Under the pieces are notes generated by a model, which was not told the origin of the DNA, searched no databases, and saw nothing but the letters and a program-made list of their open reading frames with translations. Positions 6,936 through 63,064 of a stretch of 64,000 nt of DNA are shown here, in pieces (position 1 is the first letter of the stretch; every line of letters begins with the position of its first letter). Source of the DNA: a virus. The stretch lies in the IMG/VR virus record IMGVR_UViG_3300029121_000001, one strand, 5' to 3'. The translations under genes and the position numbers were made by a program.

Positions 6936-6949
6936 TTTTATTTTCCTCC

Positions 6950-7612
6950 TTAAATTGCTTCGATAAAAATTTCGATTACATTTTTATCACTTTTATTGAG
7001 GGTTCGAACTTTTCTTTCTGCCCTGATAACAATATTGCTCGGACTATTTGGATCATTCATGAAGATGCATTCAAGTGTTTTATATCTCATAAACATATTC
7101 CGAATCTCAGAAATAATCGAATAAATCATGTACCGAGCAACTTCATAATGCGGATCAATAGGATTAAAGATATCCCAGGAGCATGCTTTGGTGCCAAAGT
7201 ACCTTCTGTAAATATCACATTTATCTTTACTCTTAGAAAAGACAAATGCATTCTTCCATTCATCCGGAGTCATATCAACACCGAATTTAAGAAGATCATT
7301 AATCTTATTGATATCTTCGGTATTATCAATATTAACCCAATAGAACATAACCGAATAACCATTCATATTGCCACGGAAACCTTGGTAATTGCTAGTAAAT
7401 GGATTATCGCTTTCAACTTCAGAAGGCGAATGATCGGTGTTATTGGTAACTGCCAGACTCAACAAAGCTGATACAATTGCAGGCATAGTAGGATCATCGT
7501 TACCGAAATTGAGAGTCTGACCGATCTCATTAGTATTGATAAATCCATTAACAATAGAAGTGCTATTGTAAGAGATGGACTTAATGTCGGAATTATTAAA
7601 AACATACTTCAT
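6950..7612 (-). CDS. hypothetical protein, possible paralog family 1 relative
   Basis: ATG at 7612 preceded by GGAAGAGGAGA; NFGNDDPTMPAIVSALLSLAV resembles NVKYGENAPHINGMLFSLINA of 2931-3560. Confidence 0.55.
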   Translation of the reverse strand: MKYVFNNSDIKSISYNSTSIVNGFINTNEIGQTLNFGNDDPTMPAIVSALLSLAVTNNTDHSPSEVESDNPFTSNYQGFRGNMNGYSVMFYWVNIDNTEDINKINDLLKFGVDMTPDEWKNAFVFSKSKDKCDIYRRYFGTKACSWDIFNPIDPHYEVARYMIYSIISEIRNMFMRYKTLECIFMNDPNSPSNIVIRAERKVRTLNKSDKNVIEIFIEAI

Positions 7613-7616
7613 AATT

Positions 7617-7976
7617 TTATTTCTCCTCTTCCATTTCATCTAACAGCAGAATGTTATCATTCCACAACTTGTCATAGTCGATTTTAATGTCTGGATAAAA
7701 ATCTTCCATAAACTCTGCCAGGATTTTAGCATTTTTCCGAAGATCTCTATGCTTCACTACAAGTTTGTTCAAATTCTCATAGATCTGCCTCTTGCAACAT
7801 CCCAAGAAACAAGTGCCATTTTCATGAAACTTGTTTTTGCACATGAAGAAGATAATCCCAGTCTTTACCTCACTAAATTTGAAATAATCTTCATCATTAA
7901 CACCTGCAACATCATCGAAGAAGTAATCGAGTGCTCGCTGAAATTCAATATACCGTTGCTTTTCTGTCTTTACCAT
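7617..7976 (-). CDS. hypothetical protein
   Basis: ORF 7617-8063; ATG at 7976 (MVKTEKQRY) has AAAGAAAGGAAAA RBS and lies downstream of promoter box/hairpin 8006-8046. Confidence 0.6.
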   Translation of the reverse strand: MVKTEKQRYIEFQRALDYFFDDVAGVNDEDYFKFSEVKTGIIFFMCKNKFHENGTCFLGCCKRQIYENLNKLVVKHRDLRKNAKILAEFMEDFYPDIKIDYDKLWNDNILLLDEMEEEK

Positions 7977-8005
7977 TTTTATTTTCCTTTCTTTTTTTTT
8001 TGTTA

Positions 8006-8046
8006 TTGAGAGCAATACATTCATACTCTCAATTATATAATATCTA
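8006..8046 (-). promoter_or_regulatory. TATTATAA box plus immediate stem-loop
   Basis: Minus strand TAGATATTATATAATTGAGAGTATGAATGTATTGCTCTCAA upstream of 7617-7976. Confidence 0.6.
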
Positions 8047-8082
8047 TTCAAAAGAATAAACATTATTAAAATATTAGATTTA

Positions 8083-8125
8083 TAATAAAAAATAAATCCC
8101 GTAGAGAGTTAATCTCTACAGGATT
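8083..8125 (-). terminator. rho-independent terminator
   Basis: aatcccgtagagagttaatctctacaggatt plus T-run on the minus strand, after 8165-8947. Confidence 0.7.
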
Positions 8126-8164
8126 TTTAACTATGCTTGATATACTTTGCTGATAATATTGATA

Positions 8165-8947
8165 TTAGCTATTTTTCTCATTCTCCTTATGGATAAAGTA
8201 TTTGGTAAAGACACTAAGTGCCTTACCATGAATAAACAGGAATACATTATCGGTAGGAATACCATGTTCATTCATAAAATCAAGAGTATTGTCGTTATCC
8301 ATATCAGGATATTCTCCAATATAAATAGATTTATCAGCTCCAACAGAGCAGCCGCATTCTTCATCATATCCAATATAGAATTTACCAATACCAGTAATAT
8401 GCTTACTGCCATCATTACCATCGACGATATTAGAGGTAATGTTACCAGACAATTTATCAATATCGGCATTGATATAAACGCATGCAGTATATTTATGCCC
8501 ACAGATATAGAAATCGAATTCTACATATGCAGGCATATCACTGGTAGGCTCATTGAATTTGATATTATCGCTATTTACTTCAATTACTTCTTTCGCAATA
8601 TCATAGAAGTAAGTCTTAGATACATCAGTACCAAAATCAGCTTTAGACCTGATACTTGTAGTACTATCAGGAGTATTTCGATACATATCACAGAAAGCCT
8701 GAAATTCATGAAAGCAATCATTATACTCATCCTCATTATAAGCACGAGAATTATAAATAGGCATATACTCAGGATAGTATTTCAAAGTATTGCTATTAGG
8801 CTCAAGAACTGCGCTATGGGTATATACCGCATCCTGGAAAATATATCTACGATGATTGGTAATAGTGCAGTAGTTCAGCTCAAAAATGGTCAAATAGTGA
8901 CCATTGATAAAGGTGCTGTTAACGATATCAGTACGAGTGAAGTTCAT
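8165..8947 (-). CDS. hypothetical protein
   Basis: ATG at 8947 (MNFTRTD) with AAAAGGAGAA RBS; natural amino-acid composition, unlike the mirror plus-strand ORF 8147-8974. Confidence 0.65.
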   Translation of the reverse strand: MNFTRTDIVNSTFINGHYLTIFELNYCTITNHRRYIFQDAVYTHSAVLEPNSNTLKYYPEYMPIYNSRAYNEDEYNDCFHEFQAFCDMYRNTPDSTTSIRSKADFGTDVSKTYFYDIAKEVIEVNSDNIKFNEPTSDMPAYVEFDFYICGHKYTACVYINADIDKLSGNITSNIVDGNDGSKHITGIGKFYIGYDEECGCSVGADKSIYIGEYPDMDNDNTLDFMNEHGIPTDNVFLFIHGKALSVFTKYFIHKENEKNS

Positions 8948-8951
8948 AATA

Positions 8952-9746
8952 TTATTCTCCTTTTTTATAGATAGCCTTATTGTATTCATTAATAATCGTG
9001 GGAGTAGCTTGCGTAATTATATGCTGACAAAGATACCCCGGATCAATACGATATTTACCAATGAAGTCATTAGATGTTTCACATTTCTGATTATAAGGTG
9101 AATGGTAGTACTTTACTAAGATTGCATTAATGAAATATTTTCCCTTTGCTTCCTTAGGCTTAGCTTTAATGCGATCAACATCACATTCTGCAGAATTCTT
9201 TACAACAAGATTTCCATCCGCATCTGTGATATCAATGATGATATAATCATTAGCCACACATACATCATTTGATTTTGCAAAATTAAAGTAGATATTTACA
9301 TCATATTCTGTATTATCAAATGCTGTAATATTGCCACTGAGTAGCATCATAGCAGTAGGCTCAATCATAAAGAAGTCTACTTTAAATTCGCTACAGGTAA
9401 ACATTTCCTTTGCGGAAATCAAATCAAAGTCACTAGTTTCACCAAAGTATCTCTGAAAAGCATCCCTGAAAGTAATGAGGCTGATATTTGCATACTGAGA
9501 AATAGCCTCTTCATATTTCTTTTCTGCATCTTCGATCTTATCGAAGAACCCATATTTATTGCAGTTGAAAATTTCATACCTTTCATATTTAGGATTAGAA
9601 GTAATCTGTTTGTAATACACGATATCATCCAAGACAAGATATTTGCAAATATCCTTGTCAGTATTACTTACCCATTCCTGAAGGGTAATTCTGTGGCCTT
9701 TGACAAGTTTGCGCTTTAGATCTCGAGTTCTAACATCAGAAACCAT
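8952..9746 (-). CDS. hypothetical protein
   Basis: ORF 8952-9755; second ATG (9746) is correctly spaced from AGAAAGGA. Confidence 0.6.
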   Translation of the reverse strand: MVSDVRTRDLKRKLVKGHRITLQEWVSNTDKDICKYLVLDDIVYYKQITSNPKYERYEIFNCNKYGFFDKIEDAEKKYEEAISQYANISLITFRDAFQRYFGETSDFDLISAKEMFTCSEFKVDFFMIEPTAMMLLSGNITAFDNTEYDVNIYFNFAKSNDVCVANDYIIIDITDADGNLVVKNSAECDVDRIKAKPKEAKGKYFINAILVKYYHSPYNQKCETSNDFIGKYRIDPGYLCQHIITQATPTIINEYNKAIYKKGE

Positions 9747-9777
9747 AGTGTACATCCTTTCTGTTTATAAAATATAT

Positions 9778-9814
9778 ATGGTAAAGATATCTTCCTTACC
9801 ATTATTATAATATC
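9778..9814 (-). promoter_or_regulatory. TATTATAA box plus immediate stem-loop
   Basis: Minus strand GATATTATAATAATGGTAAGGAAGATATCTTTACCAT upstream of 8952-9746. Confidence 0.6.
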
Positions 9815-9825
9815 TGCTTAAGTTT

Positions 9826-9874
9826 AAAAATAAAAAATAAATCCCAGTGGGTTTGGGTTTTAACCCACTGGGAT
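9826..9874 (-). terminator. rho-independent terminator
   Basis: atcccagtgggtttgggttttaacccactgggat plus T-run on the minus strand, after 9909-10745. Confidence 0.75.
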
Positions 9875-10785: not shown

Positions 10786-10834
10786 TTGAAGACAAAGATA
10801 CATTTTCCTTCATCTTCTCATTATTATAATATCC
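10786..10834 (-). promoter_or_regulatory. TATTATAA box plus imperfect stem-loop
   Basis: Minus strand GGATATTATAATAATGAGAAGATGAAGGAAAATGTATCTTTGTCTTCAA upstream of 9909-10745. Confidence 0.55.
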
Positions 10835-10855
10835 AATTGATAATATAAATTTATA

Positions 10856-10897
10856 AAAAAATAAAAGGAGTGGGTTTCATTCACCCACTCCTTTTTT
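10856..10897. terminator. bidirectional-looking terminator
   Basis: aaggagtgggtttcattcacccactcctt flanked by an A-run and a T-run. Confidence 0.7.
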
Positions 10898-12235: not shown

Positions 12236-12278
12236 TTGATAAAGAAACTATTTGCCTTTATCAATTTTATAATATCTA
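12236..12278 (-). promoter_or_regulatory. TATTATAA box plus immediate stem-loop
   Basis: Minus strand TAGATATTATAAAATTGATAAAGGCAAATAGTTTCTTTATCAA upstream of 10899-12200. Confidence 0.6.
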
Positions 12279-12282
12279 ATTA

Positions 12283-12320
12283 AAATAAATAAAATCCGGA
12301 AGAGATTATACTCTTCCGGA
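12283..12320 (-). terminator. rho-independent terminator
   Basis: tccggaagagattatactcttccgga plus T-run on the minus strand. Confidence 0.7.
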
Positions 12321-13924: not shown

Positions 13925-15286
13925 TTACTTATTAAATGCTTCTTTTTCTAGATTAAATAGATAATCTGCTTCTTCTTTACCAAGAATATCTACTACCTCA
14001 TTATATGGAAGATTGATCTTCTTAGGTTCAACATCATTTAATTCCATATGCCGTTTATTATAATAATAACAAGATGACAATACTCTACCTTTATGTGCAT
14101 AGCAGATTCCAGTATATCTTTTATTTGCTGTCCCATAAAGTTCGTAATTATATCCAGAACACCAGCCACATCCCTGAGATACTGGGCAAATCATGCATTT
14201 TTCAGGAGATTGAGATTCTCTAGTGATAGAATCTAATTCTTCTTTTATTTTCTTTTCACTATCTCGTTGATAAATGCCATTAAAGCAATCTCCAATACAA
14301 ATTTTAGATGCTTTTTCATCACCAATGGATATAGGCGCATATCTAATACAAGGATATACTTTTCCATCAGGAGCAAATGCAAGCATTGCTCCAGTGCCTC
14401 CACAATAATTTCTTACAGAGATATCAATATCTCCTATATTGTCATTAATCATTGTGATATATCCATTATATTTAGATTTTATCAAATAATTAGATAATTT
14501 CTTTAATTCTGCATATATTTCATTTGCTGTTTTTATTGTATATTCTGGCTCATATGCAAAATTACAATGAATATTCATGCAGCCATTATTTATCATCATC
14601 TTAATAGAATCAGAAATATATTTAATAGACCCAGGAGTAAATGTCATTTTACTATCTATCCAGCCATATTTCTTTTTTCCATCAAGAAAAGCAGCATATG
14701 CTTTTTCAAATGATCCATTTCCGAATTGATCTATTCTATATTTATCATGTAATTCCTGTACCCCATCAATCGATACTGTACATCTTAAAAAATTATGATA
14801 TTTTTTAAATAGGTGTTGAGCATTTGGAGTAAACCATAAAAGTCCATTGGTTGCAAATGAAAATCTTGTAAATGGTGCTAGTGGTATATTTCTTTCTTCA
14901 CATTGGTAAAAATAATAATCGATAATCGATTCAATTAACTTTGCTTCTATCAAAGGCTCGCCACCAATAAAATCGATTATCAATCCTTTAGAAAAATCAC
15001 CAATAAAATCACCATTATTATACATATCTAAAAGTGTATCGACACACTTTCTAGCCGTATAAATGTTCATTGATCCACATTTCTTATTATGCTCATAACA
15101 ATATGAACATCTCAAATTGCATTGATTGGTGACTTGAAATGTTACTGTTCTACATTTAAAATAATTTTCATTGTTATTATTATCATTTCTAAAAATTCTT
15201 TCGATAAATTTAGAATAATCTTCAGATCGTTTAATCACTATATCGTACCTCACGATTTTCAAAATCAAAAATATATTCAATCTCAT
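13925..15286 (-). CDS. radical SAM enzyme with C-terminal SPASM domain (anSME/peptide-maturase-like)
   Basis: CNLRCSYC = CxxxCxxC radical-SAM cluster motif; auxiliary-cluster motifs CGGTGAMLAFAPDGKVYPC and CMICPVSQGCGWC. True start may be GTG at 15238 (GAGG 8 nt upstream, overlaps upstream stop). Confidence 0.8.
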   Translation of the reverse strand: MRLNIFLILKIVRYDIVIKRSEDYSKFIERIFRNDNNNNENYFKCRTVTFQVTNQCNLRCSYCYEHNKKCGSMNIYTARKCVDTLLDMYNNGDFIGDFSKGLIIDFIGGEPLIEAKLIESIIDYYFYQCEERNIPLAPFTRFSFATNGLLWFTPNAQHLFKKYHNFLRCTVSIDGVQELHDKYRIDQFGNGSFEKAYAAFLDGKKKYGWIDSKMTFTPGSIKYISDSIKMMINNGCMNIHCNFAYEPEYTIKTANEIYAELKKLSNYLIKSKYNGYITMINDNIGDIDISVRNYCGGTGAMLAFAPDGKVYPCIRYAPISIGDEKASKICIGDCFNGIYQRDSEKKIKEELDSITRESQSPEKCMICPVSQGCGWCSGYNYELYGTANKRYTGICYAHKGRVLSSCYYYNKRHMELNDVEPKKINLPYNEVVDILGKEEADYLFNLEKEAFNK

Positions 15287-15527
15287 GATCTAATTTTGGT
15301 AAGTGATTAGAAATAATTTTTCTACGGGCATAATCTAATTCAATAAAAGACAGTCTTAATTTATCTGAATATTTCTTTAGCACTTCTTCTTTTTTACTAT
15401 TAGATTCATTCTCTTGTAGTGAATCGAAAATAATTTTAACCATTATTTCATAGCTTTTATATATATAAAATAATCGTTCAATATATTCCAATTCTGCTTC
15501 TTGAATATCTTCAATTTTATGTTCCAT
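15231..15527 (-). CDS. small helical protein, candidate accessory factor of the radical-SAM system
   Basis: ATG at 15527 (TAATATG junction with upstream gene, GGAGAAAAC RBS); 98 aa, acidic and helical; sits directly before the rSAM gene. Confidence 0.5.
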   Translation of the reverse strand: MEHKIEDIQEAELEYIERLFYIYKSYEIMVKIIFDSLQENESNSKKEEVLKKYSDKLRLSFIELDYARRKIISNHLPKLDHEIEYIFDFENREVRYSD

Positions 15528-15528
15528 A

Positions 15529-16122
15529 TTAGTTTTCTCCATGGATTATATTATATTGAGTATTACTGATCTTTTCAAAAGATTCTTGAATATCCATTCT
15601 CATTTTTATTAATTTAATCATGGTTGAAAAATTATCATCAGTAGAATTTCTAAAAAATAAAATCATACTTGAAATTATATAATATAAAGAAAATATAATT
15701 TCATCAGATAATTCACTAAGATTAAGATTAATAATTGAATCTGTAAAATCTTTTGTAAAAACATTTTGAAAATATTTTTTATTATTATCTAAGATTTTGA
15801 AATAAAAAGTTCTTATTGCAAGTCCTAAAGAGATAATATATTTTTCATAATCATTATTAAATTTATAATTGCATCCATTTGCAATAATATCTATTTTCGA
15901 CTTTACATAATTTAGCCAAGAATTAAAAACATAATTACTATCTATTTTATTGAATTGACCCATATAATATAAAATATAAACTATATTATTTTTATTGATA
16001 TTTCCATTTATATGATTATAAATATCATTAACAGAGAAATCTTCTCTATTCAAAAAATGAAAAAGAGCTAGATCTTGATCAACAATTTTATCTGGATCTA
16101 TTGATTTTATATAATATTCCAT
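15529..16122 (-). CDS. hypothetical protein
   Basis: 197-aa ORF, TAAGGAGAT RBS, lies between the Cys-rich protein and the rSAM genes. Confidence 0.6.
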   Translation of the reverse strand: MEYYIKSIDPDKIVDQDLALFHFLNREDFSVNDIYNHINGNINKNNIVYILYYMGQFNKIDSNYVFNSWLNYVKSKIDIIANGCNYKFNNDYEKYIISLGLAIRTFYFKILDNNKKYFQNVFTKDFTDSIINLNLSELSDEIIFSLYYIISSMILFFRNSTDDNFSTMIKLIKMRMDIQESFEKISNTQYNIIHGEN

Positions 16123-16133
16123 ATTTTATCTCC

Positions 16134-16700
16134 TTAATTCAACCAAAATTTAGCATTTCCACAGGATCCACCACAATCTGCAGTACAATTACCTCCATCA
16201 CAATTTTCATAGCATGCTCCCATACAATTACCACTCATAAGTTGGCTAGCACATGCTACGTCACACATACCATCACAGCTTCCGCTGCAACCACCACTAC
16301 AGCCACTACAGCCACTATAGCATCCTGTATAGCACAATCCACTGCAGCTAGATTTACATCCTGTATCTGCCCTAGATGATGCTGTAACAGATTTAGAACT
16401 TAAACTAGAAACTGTACTAGTAGCAGTTGTGATTTGATTAGCATAAACAATAGTATCTGTATTAGGAGTTAATTTGCCTCCATTTACAGCATCTAGTGGA
16501 TTAGTAATCTTTTGAATGTGCTCTAGTTTTATATTTTTGCCTTTTGCAGGTGTAATAGTATAATCATATGAAGTTCCATTATAGGATTTCATACTTCCAA
16601 CACTTGCTGAATTTGATCTACGCGTAATCTCCGATTTTACAAGTTTCTTAAGTGCAGTAAAATCACTAGCACTAATTAATCCACCTTTATTAGTAGCCAT
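16134..16700 (-). CDS. tail-fibre-associated protein with CXXX-repeat cysteine-rich C-terminus
   Basis: ATG at 16700 with AAGGAG RBS. C-terminus GCKSSCSGLCYTGCYSGCSGCSGGCSGSCDGMCDVAC...NCMGACYENCDGGNCTADCGGSC has 16 Cys in about 75 aa, mostly spaced C-x3-C. Confidence 0.7.
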   Translation of the reverse strand: MATNKGGLISASDFTALKKLVKSEITRRSNSASVGSMKSYNGTSYDYTITPAKGKNIKLEHIQKITNPLDAVNGGKLTPNTDTIVYANQITTATSTVSSLSSKSVTASSRADTGCKSSCSGLCYTGCYSGCSGCSGGCSGSCDGMCDVACASQLMSGNCMGACYENCDGGNCTADCGGSCGNAKFWLN

Positions 16701-16707
16701 AATTATA

Positions 16708-17649
16708 TTACTCCTTTCCAATAATAATTCTTACTTTATGAATATTATTATTACTATTAGAAGATTCTATTACTCTGCCTACAGATAGATTAGAATATTC
16801 TTTACTAGACTTTCCAACTCCAGGAATATCAGAAGGGATAATATAATCTCCAATATCTACATTACCAATACACTTTACATATACACGTCCACATAATCCT
16901 ATGGGAATATATTTCTTAATATTCTTAGAAATATAATCATCTCCAGTATCTACTGTTTCTCCACCAATAATCATAGCATATTCATCAGAATGAACTCCTG
17001 CAATAATACTACTTTTATTAGTAGCTTTAATATATTTCTCTTCTTTATTATTTTCATCTAATGCAATAATATCTCCAGGTTCTGTATATTCTCCTCTAGG
17101 GAAGAACTCTGCATAGTCATTATATACAGCACCATAACATTTACTAAATTTTGCTACACCATTTTTATCTACATAATAACTAGCACTACCAAAATTAATA
17201 GTACCAGTCATTGTTCCTCCTGCTATAGGAAGATAAGCGTCATTTAGCGAAGTCAGAGTCTGATTCATAGAATAGATCAGAGCAGAGGTAGGAATGTAGT
17301 CATTGGAGTTAACTTGAGTACTAGAAGTAGGTAGTTGAGCAACCTTATGAGAGTGATTAGAAGGTGCTTTGCCATCAATTTGGCCCTTAACAGTAGAGCC
17401 AGTAGAGAAGCCAGTACCAAGAACATTGTACAGATAGCGGACATTTTTTGCCATCTGAGTAATCTTAGTAAAGATACTAGCATGGTTATCGGAAGTAGTA
17501 ATTTGACCTACATTAGTCCAAGATGTTGCACTTGCTTGGGCAACATCGCTAGAAGAGAATCCACCAGTACCTGTAGTAAGAGTACCAGTAGGGGAAGGAG
17601 ATATGTCGTAAGACGTAGATCCTACCTTAATATGATCAACATTAGCCAT
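16708..17649 (-). CDS. tail fibre protein with C-terminal autoproteolytic/chaperone-like domain
   Basis: LPIAGGTMTGTINF tail-fibre motif; C-terminal GLCGRVYVKCIGNVDIGDYIIPSDIPGVG resembles the phi29 gp12-type (Peptidase_G2) intramolecular chaperone domain. Confidence 0.7.
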   Translation of the reverse strand: MANVDHIKVGSTSYDISPSPTGTLTTGTGGFSSSDVAQASATSWTNVGQITTSDNHASIFTKITQMAKNVRYLYNVLGTGFSTGSTVKGQIDGKAPSNHSHKVAQLPTSSTQVNSNDYIPTSALIYSMNQTLTSLNDAYLPIAGGTMTGTINFGSASYYVDKNGVAKFSKCYGAVYNDYAEFFPRGEYTEPGDIIALDENNKEEKYIKATNKSSIIAGVHSDEYAMIIGGETVDTGDDYISKNIKKYIPIGLCGRVYVKCIGNVDIGDYIIPSDIPGVGKSSKEYSNLSVGRVIESSNSNNNIHKVRIIIGKE

Positions 17650-17751
17650 ATTTTTTAGTTTCCTTTCTCTAAATTTACCTGTTTTGGCTTGATTTTGAGT
17701 AACTATTTTAAAAAAGAAATTGCGGGGTGATCATAAAGACCACACCGAATA

Positions 17752-17904
17752 AGATCTTAAACGTAGCCTTCAATAAAATAAATTCAACGAAACCTTCAAA
17801 TTATCTGACGCTTCTTATAGTCTTCAATTACAATGGATAAATCTGTATATCGAAATCTTCAAAACATTTTAACGAATCGTTCATTCATTTTAACGCAATC
17901 TTCA
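17752..17904. repeat. six direct copies of a 12-mer (minus-strand TTGAAGRTTTCG), iteron-like array
   Basis: Plus-strand copies cgtagccttcaa 17752, cgaaaccttcaa 17778, tagtcttcaa 17818, cgaaatcttcaa 17851, cgaatcgttca 17873, cgcaatcttca 17894; followed by a nearly pure AT stretch 17905-17975. Confidence 0.6.
17804..17872 (+). other. short plus-strand cassette remnant starting at an inverted copy of the junction core
   Basis: tctgacgcttct at 17804-17815 opens SDASYSLQLQWINLYIEIFKTF*; no start codon. Confidence 0.4.
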
Positions 17905-17979
17905 TTATCATATTGTTACATATTTTTAAATTAAAAATGATATTATATGAAACATATACTAAATAAGATATAAAAATAT

Positions 17980-18009
17980 GAGGGTAGAAATCGTCAAATT
18001 TCTACCCTC
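17980..18009. terminator. strong stem-loop (gagggtagaaa/tttctaccctc)
   Basis: 11-bp perfect stem seen directly; followed by tandem ccattttag ccattttag. Confidence 0.5.
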
Positions 18010-18099
18010 TAAATACCCCATTTTAGGCCATTTTAGAGGCGTTTGGCAGATTTCTCAGACTACTTCGTAATAGCGTCATATTATTTAAAAAATAATAAA

Positions 18100-18145: not shown

Positions 18146-18373
18146 TTAAATATAGACAATGTTTGCATGATAATCTGTATTACCAGATACTGCACTATCA
18201 GAGTAGTGATTTATGTATTTGCAATATAATTTTCCATTTTCTTTACAAACCTAGTAGATTGTACTGCCGTATGTACTTAAATTCAATAATTCATATCCAA
18301 TCATTATATCATTTAATTTATATCCTTTAGTATCAATATAAATATTATTAAGTCTTTTTATAGAAGCGTCAGA
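18146..18373 (-). other. start-less ORF cassette A (type I, SDASIKRL...), with in-frame TAG
   Basis: Begins at junction core 18361-18375. Reads SDASIKRLNNIYIDTKGYKLNDIMIGYELLNLSTYGSTIY*VCKENGKLYCKYINHYSDSAVSGNTDYHANIVYI*; TAG at 18251-18253. Homologous to cassette D along its whole length. Confidence 0.6.
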
Positions 18374-18379
18374 TTGCTA

Positions 18380-18676
18380 TTATATAGAAATATAATAAAT
18401 ATTTATGGTTCCAACCATAGGTGATCTAATAAATGTAAAATTATTACTATTATTAATTTTACATGAATAAAATAAATAAATAATAAATCTTTCATTTGTA
18501 GATGTATATTGTGAATGTGCTACATTTACTAATATCATCGTAATATTGTCAGTCGTATCTGGAATTGCATTAATTAGATACTCACTAGAATAATCTGTTG
18601 AAGTCATTTTCACTTCAATCATATATGTATTATTTATACTCTGAGTTCGCTGCTTAATTTTAGTAGAAGCGTCAGA
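18380..18676 (-). other. start-less ORF cassette B (type II, SDASTKIK...)
   Basis: Begins at junction core 18664-18678 immediately after an in-frame TAA and a terminator. 98 codons ending INIYYISI*; no RBS, and the first in-frame ATG is 19 codons in. Confidence 0.6.
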
Positions 18677-25387: not shown

Positions 25388-25428
25388 CTGATAAGGAAAT
25401 CATTTATCCTCATCATTGTTATAATACC
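25388..25428 (-). promoter_or_regulatory. TATTATAA box plus immediate stem-loop
   Basis: Minus strand GGTATTATAACAATGATGAGGATAAATGATTTCCTTATCAG upstream of 24763-25350. Confidence 0.6.
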
Positions 25429-25447
25429 TATTTGAATTTAAGTATTG

Positions 25448-25484
25448 TAAAAAAAAATAAAGGGATAGACGAAAAGTCTATCCC
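25448..25484 (-). terminator. rho-independent terminator after PolB
   Basis: agggatagacgaaaagtctatccct plus T-run on the minus strand. Confidence 0.75.
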
Positions 25485-41786: not shown

Positions 41787-41829
41787 GATGGAAGATATTT
41801 CTACTTCCATTCACTATTATTATATCTAC
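41787..41829 (-). promoter_or_regulatory. TATAATAA box plus immediate stem-loop
   Basis: Minus strand GTAGATATAATAATAGTGAATGGAAGTAGAAATATCTTCCATC upstream of 41271-41735. Confidence 0.55.
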
Positions 41830-41895
41830 TCAAATTTAAGAGAAATTAAAAAAAAATAATGAGTAAGGTATTTCTACCTTACTCATTATTATCAT

Positions 41896-51355: not shown

Positions 51356-54300
51356 TTACATTATTATATCTGCTGTAATAACTAGATCAGTATTTGTATC
51401 GATATAGCCATCATCATTAGGTAATAGAGATTGAGTAGGAGCTTCATATTCAGCACTAGTACCAGTAAGATCAAGAACATTATTACCATACAAACTGTAA
51501 ATATGAACAGGGCTAGCATAATATCCAGCAGGTAGAATAATATCATTACCAGCAACTATTCTAAGTTTAGAAGTGGTATATGTAGGTATATTGCCTGTAA
51601 TCTTTTGGCCATTAACCCAAGCAGTCTTAGGAGCAAGTATATCAGAAGATGTAGCATCAGATACTGTTTGTTCTGCTAGAGATTGTGTAGAAATAATACC
51701 AGATCCATTATGGAATCCACTAGGAACAGTAATTTGAACTCCAGCAGGTATTTCCAATTCAGACCAGTCCATATTATTAGGCATGGTACCGATAACTTTT
51801 TTACCATTAACCCATGCAGTCTTTGCTGTGAGAATATTATATGCAATTGCAGTACCATCTGTTTGACTAGAAAGATCTTTCAAAACAATCTTTCCATTAC
51901 CATCATGATATCCCTTAGGAATAGCAATAGTAGAACCTGCTGTAACATCATCTTTTCCAAAACCAGTATTATCAGGCATAGTGCCCGTAATCTTTTTACC
52001 ATTAACCCAAGCTGTTTTATTAATCAAAAGATTAGCAGATACAGCATCAGATACTGTTTGTTCTGCTAGAGCCTGAGTAGTAATAGTACCATATCCAGAA
52101 TAATAGCCTTCAGGAATTTGAACAGTAGTTCCGGCTGCTAGATTGATAAAAGAAGTAGAACTCTTATTAGGCATTGTACCATCTACTTTTTTACCATTAA
52201 CCCAAGCGGATTTACTAATCAAAATATCATTAGCTGTAGCATCTGCTTTTGTTTGTGTAGCTAGGTCAACAGCAGATACAATAGATTTACCACTATGATA
52301 TCCAGCAGGAATTGTATAAGAATCTCCAGCATATAGAGAAGTCATTGTATCGGGAGATTGATACATTGTACCAATAAGCTTCTGCTTAAGATTATCACTA
52401 TAGAATGTAACTCCAGAAACTACTTTATCTGCTGTAGCATTACCGGTTAATTCCAAAGTGCCAACAACTTTTTCACCGTTAACCCATGCAGTAGATCCTT
52501 TGACAATATCATCAGCAGATGCAGTGCCAGAAGTCTGTCCTCCTAATCCTTTTGCAGTAATAACACCAGATCCATCATGATATCCCTTAGGAATCTTATA
52601 TGATTCATTTGCTTCTAGTGTAGCAGACACAGCACCATTATTAGGCATTGTACCAACTATCTTAGCCTTAGGATTTGTACTATAGAAAGTTTTATCTTCT
52701 AGAACATTCTCAGATTTTGCAGATCCAGTAAAAGTAAGTGAACCAACTTGTTTCTTCTTAGGATCTGTAGTATAGAATGTAGAGCCAGCAACTACATCAT
52801 CAGATAGAGCATTGCCAGTAAGTGCAAGAGTACCAGTTCTCTTAGTCTTTGAATCAATATTGTAGAAAGTCTTTCCTACTAATACATCATCAAGAGCTGC
52901 ACTACCTGTCAATTCAAGTGTGCCTGTTACCTTTTTACCATTCACCCAAGCTGTTCTATTTTTTAGAATATCAGTATTATCTGCATTGGCTATTGTCTGA
53001 GAAGCTAGATCTTTAGATATAATAATACCAGATCCATTATGATATCCTTTAGGAACAGTATAAGATTCTCCTGCTAGTAGAGTAGAAGATACAGCACCAT
53101 TATTAGGCATTGTACCATCTACCTTTTTACCATTAACCCATGCATTCTTAGTAATAAGAATATCAGGAGATGTAGCATTAGCTTGAGTATAATCAGATAG
53201 AGGTTTTACCCAAACATTACCAGTACCATCATGATATCCTTTTTTAATTTCATAAGATTCGCCAGGACCAATAGTTACAGAAGATCCTCCATTGTTAGGC
53301 ATAGTGCCAACAATCTTTTTGCCATTAACCCAAGCAGAAGATCCTTCTAGAATAGAGTCAGAAGTTGCTGTACCAACAGTTTCAGAAGAAAGTGTTTTTG
53401 CTTTTACTTTTCCATTACCAGTATGAAATCCTTTAGCAATATCAAATATTTCTCCTTCACCAAGTTCAACAACTTTAGGATCAATCATTGGTACAGTACC
53501 AACAATCTTTTGACCATTAACCCAAGCAGTTCTATCTGCAACGAGTGAATCTGGAGTAGCACTACCAACAGTAGCATCTTTTAAAGATTGAACTTTGATT
53601 GTTGTGCGTCCAGAATAATATCCCTCGGGAATAGTAAATGTAACACCATTTCTAAGAATCCTTTCAGGATCATTACTGTGATCTGGCATAGTACCAGATC
53701 GTACTTCTGCATATACAGAAGAATAAAAATTCTTACCACTCAGAACCTGATTCTGAGTAGCATTTGTAGTTTTTAAATATTCTTTTGTATTTTGTGCAAT
53801 ATCGAATGTACCAACAATCTTTTGACCATTAACCCAGGCTATTTGTCCTTTAATAATTTGACTAGACAAAGCATTGCCTACAGTTTGAGATGCTAGATCT
53901 GCAGCTGAAATAACTGTAGTACCAGCAGATAATCCATAAGGAAAAGTATAAGACTCTCCTGCAAGAAGATTCTTATCTTTTCTAGGTAATTTAGGAATAG
54001 TACCAGTAACTTTTTTGCCATTAACCCATGCTGTTCTAGGAGAAACAATATCAGAAGCAGTAGCATCTGCTTCTTGAGTAGCTTGTTTAATATCAAGAGT
54101 ACCGGTAACCTTCTTACCATTTACCCAGAATGTCTTAGTATTGATAACATCAGCAGCTGTTGCTGTGCCAGGTGTATACTCACTAAGATCTCCTACATAT
54201 ACAGATCCTGTTCCATCATGATATCCACGTGGAATGATATATCTATTATTAGTATGGCCATCATACTTAGGATCTATCTTTATCTTTTCTGCAGTATTAA

Positions 54301-54529
54301 GAGGCATTGTACCTACCAATACATCTCTTGTTACTGCATCTTTATATGCATATTTATCTTTAACTGACGATGGAGTAGCAATAGATTCGTCAGGCTCTTG
54401 TTGTGCTAATGCATCAAGATTGTTTGCACTAGATGTATCAAAATACATTTTGCCAGCCATATGTTGATCCAACTCCTCTCCTTTAATAATATTAATATAA
54501 TGTGCGAAAGCTCCTAAGTTCAACTTCAT
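51356..54529 (-). CDS. large tail fibre protein built of about 17 tandem repeats
   Basis: Repeated [ST]AWVNG[KQ]K[IV].GTMPN...AGESY.IP.GYH.GSG units plus short TFY..D.K.K..GTL variants. ATG 54529 lacks an RBS; the alternative ATG at 54460 follows AAAGGAGAGGAG. Confidence 0.75.
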   Translation of the reverse strand: MKLNLGAFAHYINIIKGEELDQHMAGKMYFDTSSANNLDALAQQEPDESIATPSSVKDKYAYKDAVTRDVLVGTMPLNTAEKIKIDPKYDGHTNNRYIIPRGYHDGTGSVYVGDLSEYTPGTATAADVINTKTFWVNGKKVTGTLDIKQATQEADATASDIVSPRTAWVNGKKVTGTIPKLPRKDKNLLAGESYTFPYGLSAGTTVISAADLASQTVGNALSSQIIKGQIAWVNGQKIVGTFDIAQNTKEYLKTTNATQNQVLSGKNFYSSVYAEVRSGTMPDHSNDPERILRNGVTFTIPEGYYSGRTTIKVQSLKDATVGSATPDSLVADRTAWVNGQKIVGTVPMIDPKVVELGEGEIFDIAKGFHTGNGKVKAKTLSSETVGTATSDSILEGSSAWVNGKKIVGTMPNNGGSSVTIGPGESYEIKKGYHDGTGNVWVKPLSDYTQANATSPDILITKNAWVNGKKVDGTMPNNGAVSSTLLAGESYTVPKGYHNGSGIIISKDLASQTIANADNTDILKNRTAWVNGKKVTGTLELTGSAALDDVLVGKTFYNIDSKTKRTGTLALTGNALSDDVVAGSTFYTTDPKKKQVGSLTFTGSAKSENVLEDKTFYSTNPKAKIVGTMPNNGAVSATLEANESYKIPKGYHDGSGVITAKGLGGQTSGTASADDIVKGSTAWVNGEKVVGTLELTGNATADKVVSGVTFYSDNLKQKLIGTMYQSPDTMTSLYAGDSYTIPAGYHSGKSIVSAVDLATQTKADATANDILISKSAWVNGKKVDGTMPNKSSTSFINLAAGTTVQIPEGYYSGYGTITTQALAEQTVSDAVSANLLINKTAWVNGKKITGTMPDNTGFGKDDVTAGSTIAIPKGYHDGNGKIVLKDLSSQTDGTAIAYNILTAKTAWVNGKKVIGTMPNNMDWSELEIPAGVQITVPSGFHNGSGIISTQSLAEQTVSDATSSDILAPKTAWVNGQKITGNIPTYTTSKLRIVAGNDIILPAGYYASPVHIYSLYGNNVLDLTGTSAEYEAPTQSLLPNDDGYIDTNTDLVITADIIM
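51530..54170 (-). repeat. coding tandem repeats (about 180-nt and 60-nt units) inside the tail fibre gene
   Basis: Recurring plus-strand ccattaacccaagc/ccattaacccatgc (reverse of GCTTGGGTTAATGG) roughly every 180 nt. Confidence 0.8.
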
Positions 54530-54569
54530 AGTAATTTAGAGACATTTCCATACAGGGAGGTAAAACATT

Positions 54570-55883
54570 ATGCCCTTTACTGATTCTATTAATATCGTAA
54601 ATGTAGTTGTTACAGATAGATCTTTACTAAATGCTACACCTTCTGATGTTGCACAAGGTAAACAATTTATTGGTTCTACTCAGCATGTAGAAACAGGTAC
54701 AGTTCCTGTAAATAATCCTATCTCTGATATGACACTTCCTGCTGGTAGTACTCTTACAGTACCTTATGGTATCAATCCCAAACAATTTACTATCACTGCA
54801 CAAAGTATTGGAAGTGTAACTGCTGATGCAGATGCTACAGATGAAGACATCCTATGGGGAAAGACTGCTTGGGTTAATGGCCAAAAAATAAAAGGAGCTA
54901 TGCCTAACATTGGAGCAGAAAATGATATTATCCTATGTGATAACGTTCATACTATCTCTAGAGGATATCATGATGGCAATGGTGTTATTAGAGCCGAATC
55001 TCTAATGAAACAAACTCCTGCTTCAATTGTAGCTAAAGATATCATTGTTGGCTCTACATGTTGGGCAAATGGTAAGAAGATTACAGGAACAATGCCTGTA
55101 ATTAAAGATAATAGTGTTACTCGTGCATTGTATGCAGGAGAATCTTATACAGTTCCTGAAGGATATCACAGTGGTAAAGCTGTAATAAGTGCTGCTTCTC
55201 TAGCATCTCAAACTGGTGGTAATGCTATACCTGAAACCATTATTGAAGGATATACTGCTTGGGTTAATGGTCAGATGGTTAATGGTACAATTAAAAAGAT
55301 TAATCCAGAAAAAATTACTCTAGAAACTAATAAAACTTATTATATTCCTGCTGGATATCATACAGGAAAAGGATATGTAACTCAAAATGTTCCTAATATG
55401 GATGGTCAAACTGTTGCTCCTGGAAAGGATGCTCAGACCATTGAATGTGGCGGTTACTACATGAATAGTGATATTATTATTTCTGGAGTAGATGCTCTAA
55501 ATTATAGATTTCTCAATAATGATCCAGTAATAAATTCTTCTAATAAAGAGATTACTAATTATAATCTTACAGTAGAAAATAATTATGCTAGTGTTAAAGT
55601 CAATGTCGATAACTGGCATGATAATGCTACATTAAATGTATATAATTTGATATTTGATAATCTAATTGATTCTAATGGTAATAGAGTTAATCTAAATACC
55701 ACAGTTGTATTTAACTGGAAAGATCAATCCACAAATATTTATACATTAGGAAATATCACCATTGGTACTAAATATGAAGAAAATACTAATGCTCATATGA
55801 TCATTATTGGTGGTATTAAGAGTGGTATTCTAACTATGACTGAAGTTTTCTCTGCTCGTCAATTTGGTGTTATAAAAGAATAA
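54570..55883 (+). CDS. second tail fibre protein with the same repeat type (about 4 copies)
   Basis: TAWVNGQKIKGAMPN, TCWANGKKITGTMPV, TAWVNGQMVNGTIKK; AGGGAGGT RBS; divergent from 51356-54529. Confidence 0.7.
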   Translation: MPFTDSINIVNVVVTDRSLLNATPSDVAQGKQFIGSTQHVETGTVPVNNPISDMTLPAGSTLTVPYGINPKQFTITAQSIGSVTADADATDEDILWGKTAWVNGQKIKGAMPNIGAENDIILCDNVHTISRGYHDGNGVIRAESLMKQTPASIVAKDIIVGSTCWANGKKITGTMPVIKDNSVTRALYAGESYTVPEGYHSGKAVISAASLASQTGGNAIPETIIEGYTAWVNGQMVNGTIKKINPEKITLETNKTYYIPAGYHTGKGYVTQNVPNMDGQTVAPGKDAQTIECGGYYMNSDIIISGVDALNYRFLNNDPVINSSNKEITNYNLTVENNYASVKVNVDNWHDNATLNVYNLIFDNLIDSNGNRVNLNTTVVFNWKDQSTNIYTLGNITIGTKYEENTNAHMIIIGGIKSGILTMTEVFSARQFGVIKE

Positions 55884-57623: not shown

Positions 57624-58367
57624 ATGCCAAAAACTATAACTCCTGAAATTCGTCAAAAATGTGAAGAGATTATTTATAAAACATTTTCTGCAATTGATCC
57701 TACTGGTGCTAATACAGAATATTATCAAAAACTATTTGCAGATATGTCTGATGCTGAATTCACTAAACTAATTTCTGGTAGACTTCCTTTTAGATATCAT
57801 GTAGCTCCTTTTGATAATGAGCCTAAGATGCCTGATATATTTAAGGCATTTAAAGTTCTTGGTAAACCTCTAATGGAAACTGTTAAGCTTCCTTATCTAG
57901 CAAAAAATGCTGATGGTACACCTATCGAAAGTCAAGAGTGTATGGTAGGATATTTAAATATCAAACGTCTAAAGCAGATGCTTACCAAAAAGAATAATAC
58001 TGCTATTGAAATTGCTAAGCGTGATATGAAACTAACTGGCAGACTTCAGAGTACAGATAAGGGTGGTCTAGAATCAAATAAGGAATTCGAGGGAGCAATG
58101 GCTCTAAACCTAGAGAATACTACTGTAGAATATGCTCGTGTTAAAGCTGCTGCTATGAAATCTAAAGCGGAAGCTTATAATACAATCAATGTTAAGGGTG
58201 AAGTTAGTTTCAATGATATTGATATGGATAAAAATGATAGTATTCCTAAGAATGCTATGAATGTGTATCTAATCGGTGCTAATATTCATAGTAATCTTAT
58301 TGATGAAAATTATTATACTCCATATACATTGGAACGTCATGCTAAACGTCTAGAAAGAAATAATTAA
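57624..58367 (+). CDS. possible multisubunit RNA polymerase beta-like C-terminal fragment
   Basis: Weak resemblance only: MVGYLNIKRLKQMLTKK versus beta G.MYMLKLHHLVDDK, and DKGGLESNKEFEGAMAL versus GGQRFGEMEVWAL. AAAGGAGAA RBS. Confidence 0.35.
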   Translation: MPKTITPEIRQKCEEIIYKTFSAIDPTGANTEYYQKLFADMSDAEFTKLISGRLPFRYHVAPFDNEPKMPDIFKAFKVLGKPLMETVKLPYLAKNADGTPIESQECMVGYLNIKRLKQMLTKKNNTAIEIAKRDMKLTGRLQSTDKGGLESNKEFEGAMALNLENTTVEYARVKAAAMKSKAEAYNTINVKGEVSFNDIDMDKNDSIPKNAMNVYLIGANIHSNLIDENYYTPYTLERHAKRLERNN

Positions 58368-58370
58368 AAA

Positions 58371-58415
58371 AAAAATAAAACCGGTAGAGGATTAAATCCT
58401 CTACCGGTCTTTTTA
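58371..58415. terminator. bidirectional terminator closing cassette locus 2 and gene 57624-58367
   Basis: ccggtagaggattaaatcctctaccgg flanked by an A-run and a T-run. Confidence 0.75.
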
Positions 58416-58513
58416 GGAGAAAATATTATGCCAACCAATATCCATCGTAGCAATGATATCGGCTAAATAAGATATCCAACCAGCACCGAAATCAGATATC
58501 TTTAATATTATGT

Positions 58514-58774
58514 TTAAATATAAAGTATTTTAGAAGTGACTTTTCCTGAATATTCAGCTTGTAGACGTATCAATATAAAATAGCCTTTATTATCTTCATT
58601 ACGCTCCATATAAATGCCTGATATTGTAAATGGATGACTAGTATTATCACTAACATCTTTTATATATATTATTTGTAATGGAATTTTTGGATCTGGTACA
58701 TAATATATTGCTAACGTGCCACGCTGTACAGTAGTAATTGCGTCATCTATTTTAATTTTAGTAGAAGCGTCATT
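58514..58774 (-). other. start-less ORF cassette C (type II, NDASTKIK...)
   Basis: Begins at variant junction AATGACGCTTCTA (58762-58774), 7 nt after the stop of cassette D. 86 codons ending SKILYI*; no RBS or start codon. Confidence 0.6.
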
Positions 58775-58780
58775 ATGCTT

Positions 58781-59014
58781 TTAAATATATATTATATTTG
58801 CATAGGTGCTATATTTATCAAAATAAAATGTATCATTACCACTACCATGTGCATATGCAGCATATAGTTTATTATTATATTTATATATACCAGAATATTC
58901 TTCTCTAATTGATGGTGAATTTAATAAATCGTATCCTATTATTATACCTGCTAGTACATATCCTTTGGTTGCATCGATATATATTCCATCAAGCCTTTTT
59001 ATAGAAGCGTCAGA
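58781..59014 (-). other. start-less ORF cassette D (type I, SDASIKRL...)
   Basis: Begins at junction core 59002-59016 directly after an in-frame TAA and terminator 59019-59060. 77 codons with no Met at all, ending ANIIYI*. Differs from cassette A partly by synonymous changes. Confidence 0.6.
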
Positions 59015-59018
59015 TTAT

Positions 59019-59442: not shown

Positions 59443-59491
59443 TCTAAGAAGGAATACATTTATCCTTCTTATCACTTTTATAATATATCAG
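59443..59491 (-). promoter_or_regulatory. TATTATAA box plus immediate stem-loop
   Basis: Minus strand CTGATATATTATAAAAGTGATAAGAAGGATAAATGTATTCCTTCTTAGA upstream of 59238-59402. Confidence 0.6.
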
Positions 59492-59540
59492 TGAAATATT
59501 AAAAAATGAAATAGGATATAAAATCCTATTTCATTTATAT

Positions 59541-60185
59541 TTAATTTCCTTTAGTACTCTTAACACCAAAGCTTATAGCATCATCTTCCCTATCAGGTCC
59601 TACCATGAACTTAGCTTTGATATTCCTATCTTCAAGAATTTCATTAACTTTCTTTACATAGTTATGAGCATCCTTTTCATAATTCTCACTACCGTGATCC
59701 TTAAAATCAGGATATCCACTATAAGTATCACCATTCATAAGTTCGATAAATGCTTTCGGAGAACTACTGTAGTATTTACCAAAAGAAGATTCTCGTTCAC
59801 CCTCATCATTAATATGATCTTTATCATTAAGATCAACATAATCACAACATCTTTTCAACTTTGGAAAATCCATTAAAGTAGATGTAGCAATTGTCATGAT
59901 TCTACGAATTTCTTCTTTTGTCAAATGCTCAGGAGTTTGTTCTTTTTTCTCTTCACTTTTGTTCTTATCAGATTCAGACTTTGAATCTGAAGAAGATGAT
60001 TTCTTATCGTTTGATTTAGAAGAAGTTTTTTCTTTTTTATCGTCTTCTTCATCATCTTCCTCGTCGTCATCCTCATCTTCGTCATCATCATTATCTTCAT
60101 CTTTATCATCGTCATCATCCAAATATTGTGCATATTTAGAAACATATTTTTCATTCAAGATAAACTTTTTGTTGAATATAGACAT
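59541..60185 (-). CDS. protein with poly-acidic and Ser/Lys-rich N-terminal half
   Basis: DDDDDKDEDNDDDEDEDDDEEDDEEDDKKEKTSSKSNDKKSSSSDSKSESDK; TAGGAGAA RBS. Confidence 0.6.
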   Translation of the reverse strand: MSIFNKKFILNEKYVSKYAQYLDDDDDKDEDNDDDEDEDDDEEDDEEDDKKEKTSSKSNDKKSSSSDSKSESDKNKSEEKKEQTPEHLTKEEIRRIMTIATSTLMDFPKLKRCCDYVDLNDKDHINDEGERESSFGKYYSSSPKAFIELMNGDTYSGYPDFKDHGSENYEKDAHNYVKKVNEILEDRNIKAKFMVGPDREDDAISFGVKSTKGN

Positions 60186-63003: not shown

Positions 63004-63048
63004 CTAACAAAGGATCCATTTCCCTTTGTTTCATCTTTATAATATCTA
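63004..63048 (-). promoter_or_regulatory. TATTATAA box plus immediate stem-loop
   Basis: Minus strand TAGATATTATAAAGATGAAACAAAGGGAAATGGATCCTTTGTTAG upstream of 62599-62979. Confidence 0.6.
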
Positions 63049-63064
63049 TTTAAGATAATATAAA

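Follow-up and report, generated by a model that had tools for sequence, protein, structure and literature searches.

Start-less cassettes of a human gut jumbo phage and their predicted use as exchangeable tail fiber tips

Start-less cassettes at locus 2

A stretch of 64,000 nucleotides of viral DNA (IMG/VR record IMGVR_UViG_3300029121_000001), referred to here as the window, was analyzed with respect to short coding-like cassettes without start codons and their relation to a tail fiber gene. The cassettes lie at two loci, and those of locus 2 (58514 to 59016) are the main subject. The window is phage-like in content with an A+T content of 68%. The gene adjoining locus 2 (57624 to 58367) matches a PHROG family annotated as RNA polymerase beta subunit, and its nearest relatives were found in IMG/VR contigs of 160 to 271 kb and in human gut metagenome contigs. 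The window is a piece of a human gut jumbo phage of approximately 250 kb. No match to the window DNA or to the cassettes was found among GenBank phages by megablast or tblastn. Related contigs are designated below by L numbers and related proteins by P numbers.

Locus 2 holds two cassettes on the minus strand. Cassette D (58781 to 59014) is the first in the array. It has 77 codons, reading SDASIKRLDG...ANIIYI before the stop, and contains no methionine codon. Cassette C (58514 to 58774) is the second, with 86 codons reading NDASTKIKIDD...SKILYI before the stop. Each opens with the junction xxTGACGCTTCTA, read as codons x-D-A-S. The 7 bp sequence TGACGCT within the junction is termed the core and lies at 59006 to 59012 in D and at 58766 to 58772 in C, both on the minus strand. 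A preliminary description made from the sequence alone had reported these two cassettes, and their lengths and contents were confirmed, as were the junction copies on the minus strand (AATCTGACGCTTCTA, perfect, at 59002 to 59016 and the variant AATGACGCTTCTA at 58762 to 58774). The gap between D and C had been given as 7 nt and was measured as 6 nt (AAGCAT), with C in frame with D. Nine matches to the junction 15-mer at three or fewer mismatches were counted in the window compared to a mean of 2.5 in shuffled sequence. None of 100 shuffles reached nine.

A terminator hairpin with a T-run (59063 to 59030, minus strand) ends the upstream transcription unit and is followed by an in-frame TAA-TC and then by the TGACGCT of cassette D, in agreement with the earlier account. 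This arrangement was the start of nearly every array in the relatives. On the other side a bidirectional terminator (58377 to 58411) separates the array from the RNA-polymerase-beta-like gene. Locus 2 is thus a terminator-bounded pocket, and no promoter was evident in it. A tiny plus-strand open reading frame, MPTNIHRSNDIG, with an AGGAG ribosome-binding site is located at 58429 to 58500, between the array and the bidirectional terminator. The same interval holds a hairpin whose wobble pairs suit a minus-strand RNA. The start region of this open reading frame is kept in L001 and L002.

Locus 1 contains cassette B (18380 to 18676, minus strand, 98 codons), the first in its array, and cassette A (18146 to 18373, minus strand, 75 codons), which has an in-frame TAG at 18251 to 18253. 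Cassette A is a homolog of D, as had been proposed, with 43 to 44% amino acid identity outside the junction. The proposed homology of C and B could not be demonstrated. Their global identity was 19% and they had only the junction and TKIK in common. The claim that the order is inverted between the loci (B-A versus D-C) is therefore without basis.

A total of 67 distinct start-less junctions was gathered from related genomes. At 56 of these at least 65 open codons followed in the junction frame (median 80). In the other two frames the same length was reached at only 2 and 0 junctions, and the median open lengths were 11 and 0 codons. Of the 11 short junctions, eight were an inverted core within the head element described below and not cassettes, which leaves three damaged cassettes: A with its TAG, one in L002 with a frameshift and a short one in L139. 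Approximately 59 cassettes therefore remain, of which 56 are open up to a conserved ...YYI stop at 50 to 80% amino acid divergence. The six-cassette locus 2 arrays of L002 and L150 were identical except for the first cassette, frameshifted in L002 (12503 to 12568) and intact in L150 (6325 to 6564). The frameshift reflects a sequencing error or else recent decay.

The family pattern of cassette D is IKKL-NIYI...GY.L.G..IG...ANIVYI. AlphaFold2 predicted D alone, from a 15-sequence alignment, to be a compact all-beta domain of seven strands with high confidence (predicted local distance difference test 91.9, predicted template modeling score 0.79). The cassettes had no matches in Pfam or PHROG. 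When cassette D alone was searched against proteins, a single near-identical fragment was retrieved, because start-less cassettes are seldom called as genes.

The synonymous differences between A and D had been put forward as a sign of protein-level selection. This argument is weak alone, as the ratio of nonsynonymous to synonymous rates (dN/dS) was 0.32 with dS saturated (1.7). The use of dN/dS was limited in general: close pairs exceeded 1 (2.07, 2.07, and 3.0) on few synonymous changes and distant pairs were saturated. The preliminary description had counted dN/dS near 1 with frame-disrupting indels in relatives against coding, and frame lesions were found to be rare (3 of approximately 59 cassettes). 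Protein-level selection itself was supported by the open frames in relatives, the predicted fold of D, the in-frame fusions and the head at locus 2 in L142, the last two being described below. Judged from their frames and from the modeled fold, the cassettes encode real proteins.

The absence of a start codon, ribosome-binding site or evident promoter, the position between terminators, the TAG in cassette A and the frameshift in L002 would suit decaying, functionless pseudogene fragments of former fiber genes. This explanation is very improbable given the 56 frames kept open to a conserved stop at such divergence, the confident predicted fold of D, the expression of the same module families elsewhere as fusions and the presence of a head at locus 2 in L142.

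Fusion of the module families to a fiber N-terminal module

The fiber gene of the window (16708 to 17649, minus strand) is comprised of a 135 amino acid N-terminal module, a junction and a C-terminal module. The N-terminal module (17246 to 17649, minus strand, amino acids 1 to 135) ends in ...YSMNQTLTSL and is the constant partner of the cassettes. The current C-terminal module (16708 to 17245, minus strand) starts with NDAYLPIAGGTMTG and has a weak match to the Peptidase_G2 intramolecular-chaperone domain. A PDB sequence search with the fiber gave no match. The junction AATGACGCTTAT at 17245 to 17234 is read N-D-A-Y, and in a scan of the long window open reading frames for an internal DAS.K motif the cassettes alone matched. 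In the sister contig L102 the C-terminal module of the window fiber was found as a start-less cassette after a terminator, with the homology starting exactly at the core. In L121 the same 135-residue N-terminal module (84% identical) was joined at N-D-A-S to a different module of 283 residues.

A protein search with the N-terminal module identified 85 proteins, of which 60 were 202 to 242 amino acids in size. Each of the 60 was composed of the N-terminal module and a small C-terminal module, always joined at ...YSMNQTLTSL-NDAS. An NNAS sequence in P0021 implies a mutated junction, TAACGCT. The N-terminal module was 83 to 98% identical to that of the window in 56 of them and 53 to 55% in four outliers. 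The C-terminal modules belonged to at least 19 families, including relatives of D (P0003, 51% identity, and P0045), A (P0016, 52%, and P0022), and B (P0008, 53%, P0042, and P0027). Cassette C was distantly represented: P0012 (34%) was its nearest fused relative, and this protein and a single cassette at the same locus in the sister contig L001 (27%) were its closest relatives overall. As these module families are fused to the fiber N-terminal module, the start-less cassettes are alternative C-termini of the fiber. The earlier suggestion of fiber C-termini is thus borne out by in-frame fusions in 60 public proteins.

The fusions also bear on whether the cassettes are independent small genes, using an ATA or ATT start or re-initiation after the preceding stop. 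Only 6 to 10 nt separate a cassette from the previous stop, and ATA or ATT occurs at codons 5 to 7. The cassettes have no Shine-Dalgarno sequence, whereas ordinary genes of the phage use AAGGAGG. A terminator precedes the first cassette, and the junction is the exact fusion point in the 60 proteins. Independent expression of this kind is hardly credible. The window was also scanned for Rfam families and tRNAs and none was found, which leaves an RNA-level account, by an intron or by a suppressor tRNA reading the TAG of cassette A, without support.

Some further features accompany the fiber. Downstream of its C-terminal module (13925 to 16721 in the window, 2739 to 5563 in L102) are a Cys-rich protein, two unknown proteins and a radical S-adenosylmethionine enzyme of 453 amino acids. 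CxxC-type repeats were seen in the L102 homolog of the Cys-rich protein. In L102 this block accompanies the start-less module, and it may be a fiber modification system. In L126 (ENA ERZ27271590 k95_34715) the 5' part of the fiber gene resembled a paralogous fiber, as in L123, and the 3' part resembled the head. The gene was joined at the core to the left end of the head (NDAITK, then stop). Such a gene would result either from ordinary homologous recombination of two paralogous N-terminal modules or from a head that inserted in a complete fiber gene.

A diversity-generating retroelement was found on the same fiber in L121 (IMGVR_UViG_3300045988_139374, 6409 to 9767). Its variable repeat (7173 to 7246) is at the end of the 283 amino acid C-terminal module joined to the head, and all eight mismatches to the template repeat (8253 to 8326) were at adenines of the template. 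The reverse transcriptase (RVT_1) is encoded at 8481 to 9767. Start-less copies of this 283 amino acid module type were present in L071, L123, L129, and L135.

Elsewhere in the window, a minus-strand gene for a protein of 1,057 amino acids and a divergent plus-strand gene for one of 437 amino acids (51356 to 55883) share repeats of approximately 65 amino acids, AWVNGxKIxGTMP. The repeats have a period of 192 to 195 nt in up to 12 copies and form long inverted DNA repeats between both genes. The two are probably further fiber or adhesin proteins. The interval 59541 to 60185 encodes a 214 amino acid protein in which a Ser/Lys-rich tract comes after a long run of Asp and Glu. The motif TTATAATATCT (plus strand) or AGATATTATAA (minus strand) recurs directly upstream of many minus-strand genes, with copies at 8026 to 8062, 9795 to 9841, 10814 to 10860, 12245 to 12294, 25397 to 25455, 41807 to 41853, 59469 to 59505, and 63028 to 63064. 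The motif, absent from the cassette arrays, probably represents a class of phage promoters.

Movement of the head element between TGACGCT cores

The window and L102 are collinear except for an element of approximately 0.84 kb (17236 to 18078, minus strand), termed the head, which lies between two direct cores and includes the N-terminal module. At the left core (18072 to 18078, minus strand) xxTGACGCT is followed by ATTACGAAG, read DAITK and stop. At the right core (17236 to 17242, minus strand) CTAAA-TGACGCT is followed by the C-terminal module. The order within the head is the left core, approximately 240 nt with a hairpin (18009 to 17980, minus strand), an inverted third core (J_inv, 17806 to 17812, plus strand), approximately 155 nt, the ATG and N-terminal module, and the right core. 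The hairpin is in non-coding DNA. The inverted core was present in every head and was followed by only 8 to 24 non-conserved codons. It could be an OFF switch operated by inversion. The promoter and ribosome-binding site of the fiber gene are presumed to be located in the head. The head unit was also found in L121, L125, L132 to L139, L142, L161, and L162, with a size of 0.84 to 0.94 kb between two direct cores, and wherever a contig had a head it had a single one.

TGACGCT occurs ten times in the window. Seven copies are in this system, and the other three approximate the base-composition expectation by our own estimate. The cores of A to D and of both head ends are all on the minus strand. 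Scans for GAY-GCN showed GAC-GCT at every cassette found, and GAT makes up 90% of the Asp codons in the long window open reading frames. The use of GAC at every junction despite this preference means that the constraint acts on the DNA and not on the protein alone. A 14-base junction scan of IMG/VR matched 118 stretches, largely noise, and gave the sister loci.

The four junction states expected of a moving element were observed: empty (aaataata-TGACGCT-tatcttc), left (aaataata-TGACGCT-attacgaag), right (cgctaaa-TGACGCT-tatcttc), and circle (cgctaaa-TGACGCT-attacgaag). They match conservative site-specific recombination with a 7 bp overlap. The circle junction was found in L125, an ENA MEGAHIT contig (k141_685194) of 1,085 nt. 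Its terminal repeat of 141 nt equals the assembler k-mer and yields a circular unit of 944 bp. A terminal repeat on a contig is the usual mark of circularity. Aligned to the L121 head, which measures 943 bp from core to core, the unit is collinear but circularly permuted, and its joint falls at the core. An identity of 7 bp is too short for a join in a k = 141 graph, and therefore molecules with the right end of the head joined to its left end must exist.

L161 (a 276 kb contig) and L162 (a 122 kb scaffold) represent the same phage type from two samples. Two cassette cores enclose 3,245 bp, over which the two sequences are 99.97% identical. L161 has a 944 bp head at the first core, fused to a KNFGNGS-type module to give P0092 (307 amino acids). 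L162 has a 943 bp head at the second core. Each has an exact empty site at the position of the head in the other. Across the relatives the head was found in at least four genomic neighborhoods and in both orientations relative to the flanking genes. These were locus 1 of the window, a site beside recombinase and dCMP-deaminase/RNA-polymerase genes (L121, L134), a site with a prohead-protease block on one side and an RNase-H-like gene on the other (L132, L133, L137, L138), and a site near 167 and 812 amino acid genes in both orientations (L135, L139).

P0057 was considered as an inversion product at the inverted core of the head, and its contig (coverage 1.5) disagreed with the prediction. In L102 (1700 to 1925) a minus-strand cassette body without its own core directly adjoins the core, on the plus strand, of the following cassette. 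The same body has a normal junction in L139 (3015 to 3233). The breakpoint lies at a GTCA pseudo-site. This looks like off-target recombination.

Locus 2 was compared across 15 human gut relatives and L001 (L002, which is from the genome of L121, repeats the L150 array). Across 16 genomes, the window included, the interval from the terminator to the RNA-polymerase-like gene contained one to six cassettes. Seven genomes, again with the window, have a neighbor gene at least 98% identical to that of the window, and six different locus 2 contents were found among them. Relatives with a neighbor gene of 72 to 82% identity had no cassettes at this site. In L001 the flanks of locus 2 were 94 to 96% identical to those of the window and the cassettes between them were unrelated. 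In L142 (neighbor gene 99% identical) a head was inserted at locus 2 and fused to a 99-residue module matching P0005. The head in L142 and the varying contents indicate that locus 2 is a landing pad in actual use whose cassettes turn over fast.

A Xer-like tyrosine recombinase was encoded in all four related IMG/VR contigs (L131/L121, L127, L128, L129; five loci), and the recombinase of the sister contig showed 91% identity. The ENA contig behind L134 has a gene with the same Pfam domains (Phage_integrase). The recombinase had a Phage_integrase score of 3.9e-39. Its best NCBIfam model was XerA-like (209 bits compared to a cut-off of 220), and it scored 100 bits on the IntI model TIGR02249 (cut-off 265). 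The gene (1807 to 2796 in L121) was located 3 to 7 kb from a fiber or cassette locus in L121, L134, and L129. A 7 bp overlap suits the tyrosine recombinase family, and this enzyme is the most likely candidate for acting on the cores. No serine-recombinase motif was found in the window open reading frames, and neither a reverse transcriptase nor a template repeat was found in the window.

Two further explanations were weighed against these results. Nothing but the missing 5' ends of the cassettes favors mis-assembly that severed the 3' ends of genes. The preliminary description had named an assembly error as grounds for rejecting the cassettes, and the same architecture was found in more than 15 independent assemblies from several assemblers. 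It recurs in IMG/VR, ENA MEGAHIT, SPAdes, and Logan assemblies of many samples. This recurrence refutes an artefact, the junction states are precise and reciprocal, and we attach practically no weight to mis-assembly.

The other explanation is evolutionary module shuffling only. The cassettes would be the leftovers and the donors in sporadic exchanges between related phages that co-infect a cell, by homologous or micro-homology recombination at a conserved linker, and there would be no dedicated recombinase and no programmed switching. The divergence between the L161 and L162 heads (95.9% identical, with flanks of approximately 100%) suggests exchange between genomes, a recombinase was not found in the window, and the chimeric N-terminal module of L126 shows homologous recombination between paralogous fiber genes. 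Shuffling fits poorly with a crossover identity of just 7 bp between flanks without homology, with exactly conservative products (empty, left, right, and circle) and with junctions that all keep GAC, a rare codon for Asp. It fits no better with the existence of a circular or permuted head, the conservation of the tyrosine recombinase in four related IMG/VR contigs and one ENA contig, or the different contents of genomes that are 98 to 100% identical in the flanks. We regard shuffling alone as unlikely. Ribosomal bypassing, read-through, trans-splicing, a peptidase-S74 motif (SDxxxK), and retroelement templating were also considered and were dropped after the fusions and junction states had been found.

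Proposed mechanism and comparison with known systems

Cassettes C and D are likely to be silent, exchangeable tips of one fiber that are expressed when a mobile head recombines at the in-frame TGACGCT core. The 0.84 to 0.94 kb head carries the N-terminal 135 codons, presumably with the promoter and ribosome-binding site, and the core falls within codons x-Asp-Ala. Conservative site-specific recombination between direct cores would excise the head, and the circular or head-to-tail form that was observed is taken as the intermediate. The head would then re-insert at the core of any start-less cassette, the core of D being one predicted landing site, to give an in-frame fusion of N-terminal module, N-D-A-S and cassette. 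One tip per genome would be expressed at once and many others stored. Locus 2 is one of several landing pads, and the cassettes too undergo turnover between loci. Catalysis would most likely be by the Xer-like tyrosine recombinase of these phages. The tips are probably receptor-binding modules.

Several points weigh against this reading. The L125 circle could also derive from a tandem head dimer. The L161 and L162 heads are just 95.9% identical between flanks of approximately 100%, which hints at exchange between genomes and not a simple hop, and head moves could be rare on an evolutionary scale. The recombinase gene is absent from the 64 kb window, and the link between the enzyme and the cores is one of conservation and proximity in relatives only. 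The scheme does not account for the inverted core inside the head. A head is missing from the sister contig, in which at least 18 cassettes at five loci were found, all of them start-less. Three cassettes are damaged as described above, and no significant structural relative of the D model was found in PDB or BFVD with Foldseek.

A bolder form of the proposal is an "inverse integron". During infection the Xer-like recombinase would repeatedly excise a circle of approximately 0.9 kb with the N-terminal half of the fiber gene and its presumed promoter, and would re-insert it at the 7 bp in-frame core before any of approximately 20 scattered and mobile silent tips. One burst would then release progeny that differ widely in their receptor-binding tips, and in some lineages a diversity-generating retroelement would also act on one tip type. 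We hold the case for and against this fuller version to be evenly balanced.

Tail fiber tips usually help decide which bacteria a phage infects. To our knowledge programmed tip variation has been limited to mutagenesis by diversity-generating retroelements and small invertible segments with two to six alternatives. The present system keeps dozens of unrelated tip domains in each genome, with at least 19 families among the relatives, and would deploy one of them by relocating the 5' half of the gene and not the 3' half. If switching is frequent, it would be a host-range bet-hedging device in abundant human gut jumbo phages. It would account for a large functional coding pool overlooked by gene callers, and start-less open reading frames in phage genomes can be real signal and not noise. 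A 7 bp core and one recombinase would also be a compact natural scaffold for engineering swappable receptor-binding modules. The system is a recombination-based tail fiber tip exchange, a variant of programmed C-terminal module switching that we have not seen described, and no account of such a phage system was found in full-text literature searches.

The closest systems in logic are those of Mycoplasma: vsa of M. pulmonis (HvsR), and vpma of M. agalactiae and vsp of M. bovis (Xer1/Mbr). In these, silent genes are connected to a single expression site by a Xer-like recombinase (PMC2268961). Both have one expression site and silent members, low G+C content and change in a surface-exposed protein. 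The single expression site with silent 5'-incomplete genes was found here in the form of 67 start-less junctions and 60 fused proteins. In Mycoplasma the recombinase is encoded nearby, while here the candidate is in relatives and the window is without one. Mycoplasma systems invert within one locus, with the vpma and vsp sites in the 5' untranslated region, while here the sites are in frame, mostly direct repeats and spread over at least five distant loci. Inversion between inverted sites in one locus was not found, and the events seen were head excision and insertion. Unlike in Mycoplasma, it is the expression site that is excised and inserted elsewhere, and the variable protein is the tail fiber of a lytic-type jumbo phage.

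Next in likeness come the R64/IncI shufflon and the phage fiber invertases. The shufflon similarly swaps C-terminal segments of an adhesin (PilV) in frame at short asymmetric sites within the coding sequence, using a tyrosine recombinase (Rci). It is one compact locus with inverted sites only, a fixed N-terminal part and inversions only, whereas scattered direct arrays and a mobile N-terminal part were found here. Clustered inverted sfx-type sites downstream of a fixed constant region were not found. In Mu (G/Gin), P1 (C/Cin), and p15B (Min) phage-encoded rearrangement exchanges the host-range-determining C-terminus of the tail fiber, and in this swap of the fiber C-terminal part by DNA rearrangement the systems are alike. 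Gin, Cin, and Min are serine invertases acting on 26 bp inverted sites with an enhancer, and offer two to six alternatives in one segment. In the present system the core is 7 bp, the sites are direct, the candidate enzyme is a tyrosine recombinase, the head is excised and inserted, and the alternatives number in the dozens.

Integrons share with it promoter-less cassette arrays that vary in number between close relatives, a circular intermediate and a tyrosine recombinase, and in both new cassettes appear to gather at the head of the array. The circular excised form is represented here by the 944 bp L125 head contig, for which a tandem dimer is also possible. In integrons the cassettes come with start codons and structured attC sites and are brought to a promoter at a fixed place, whereas here the N-terminal element moves to 5'-truncated modules. 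An IntI-type integrase was not found, attC sites and cassette starts were absent, and the cassettes are 6 to 10 nt apart with the in-frame core as their sole common element.

We know of no mobile head or circular form for the orphan C-terminal toxin cassettes of CdiA/Rhs systems. Those cassettes are similar in being start-less stored modules that share a short junction motif with an expressed gene (PMC3482391). They have longer homology and are thought to be exchanged into a fixed gene by homologous recombination (PMC3482391). Diversity-generating retroelements also diversify phage receptor-binding proteins. They mutate a fixed variable repeat by reverse transcription, while C and D have no template repeat or nearby reverse transcriptase and belong to unrelated families. 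Antigenic variation by gene conversion (pilE/pilS, vlsE) is non-reciprocal copying into a fixed site, in contrast to the reciprocal junctions and relocating expression module found here. The system is set apart from those of Mycoplasma, the shufflon and the phage invertases by direct multi-locus arrays, an in-frame core, excision and insertion, and a mobile 5' gene half.

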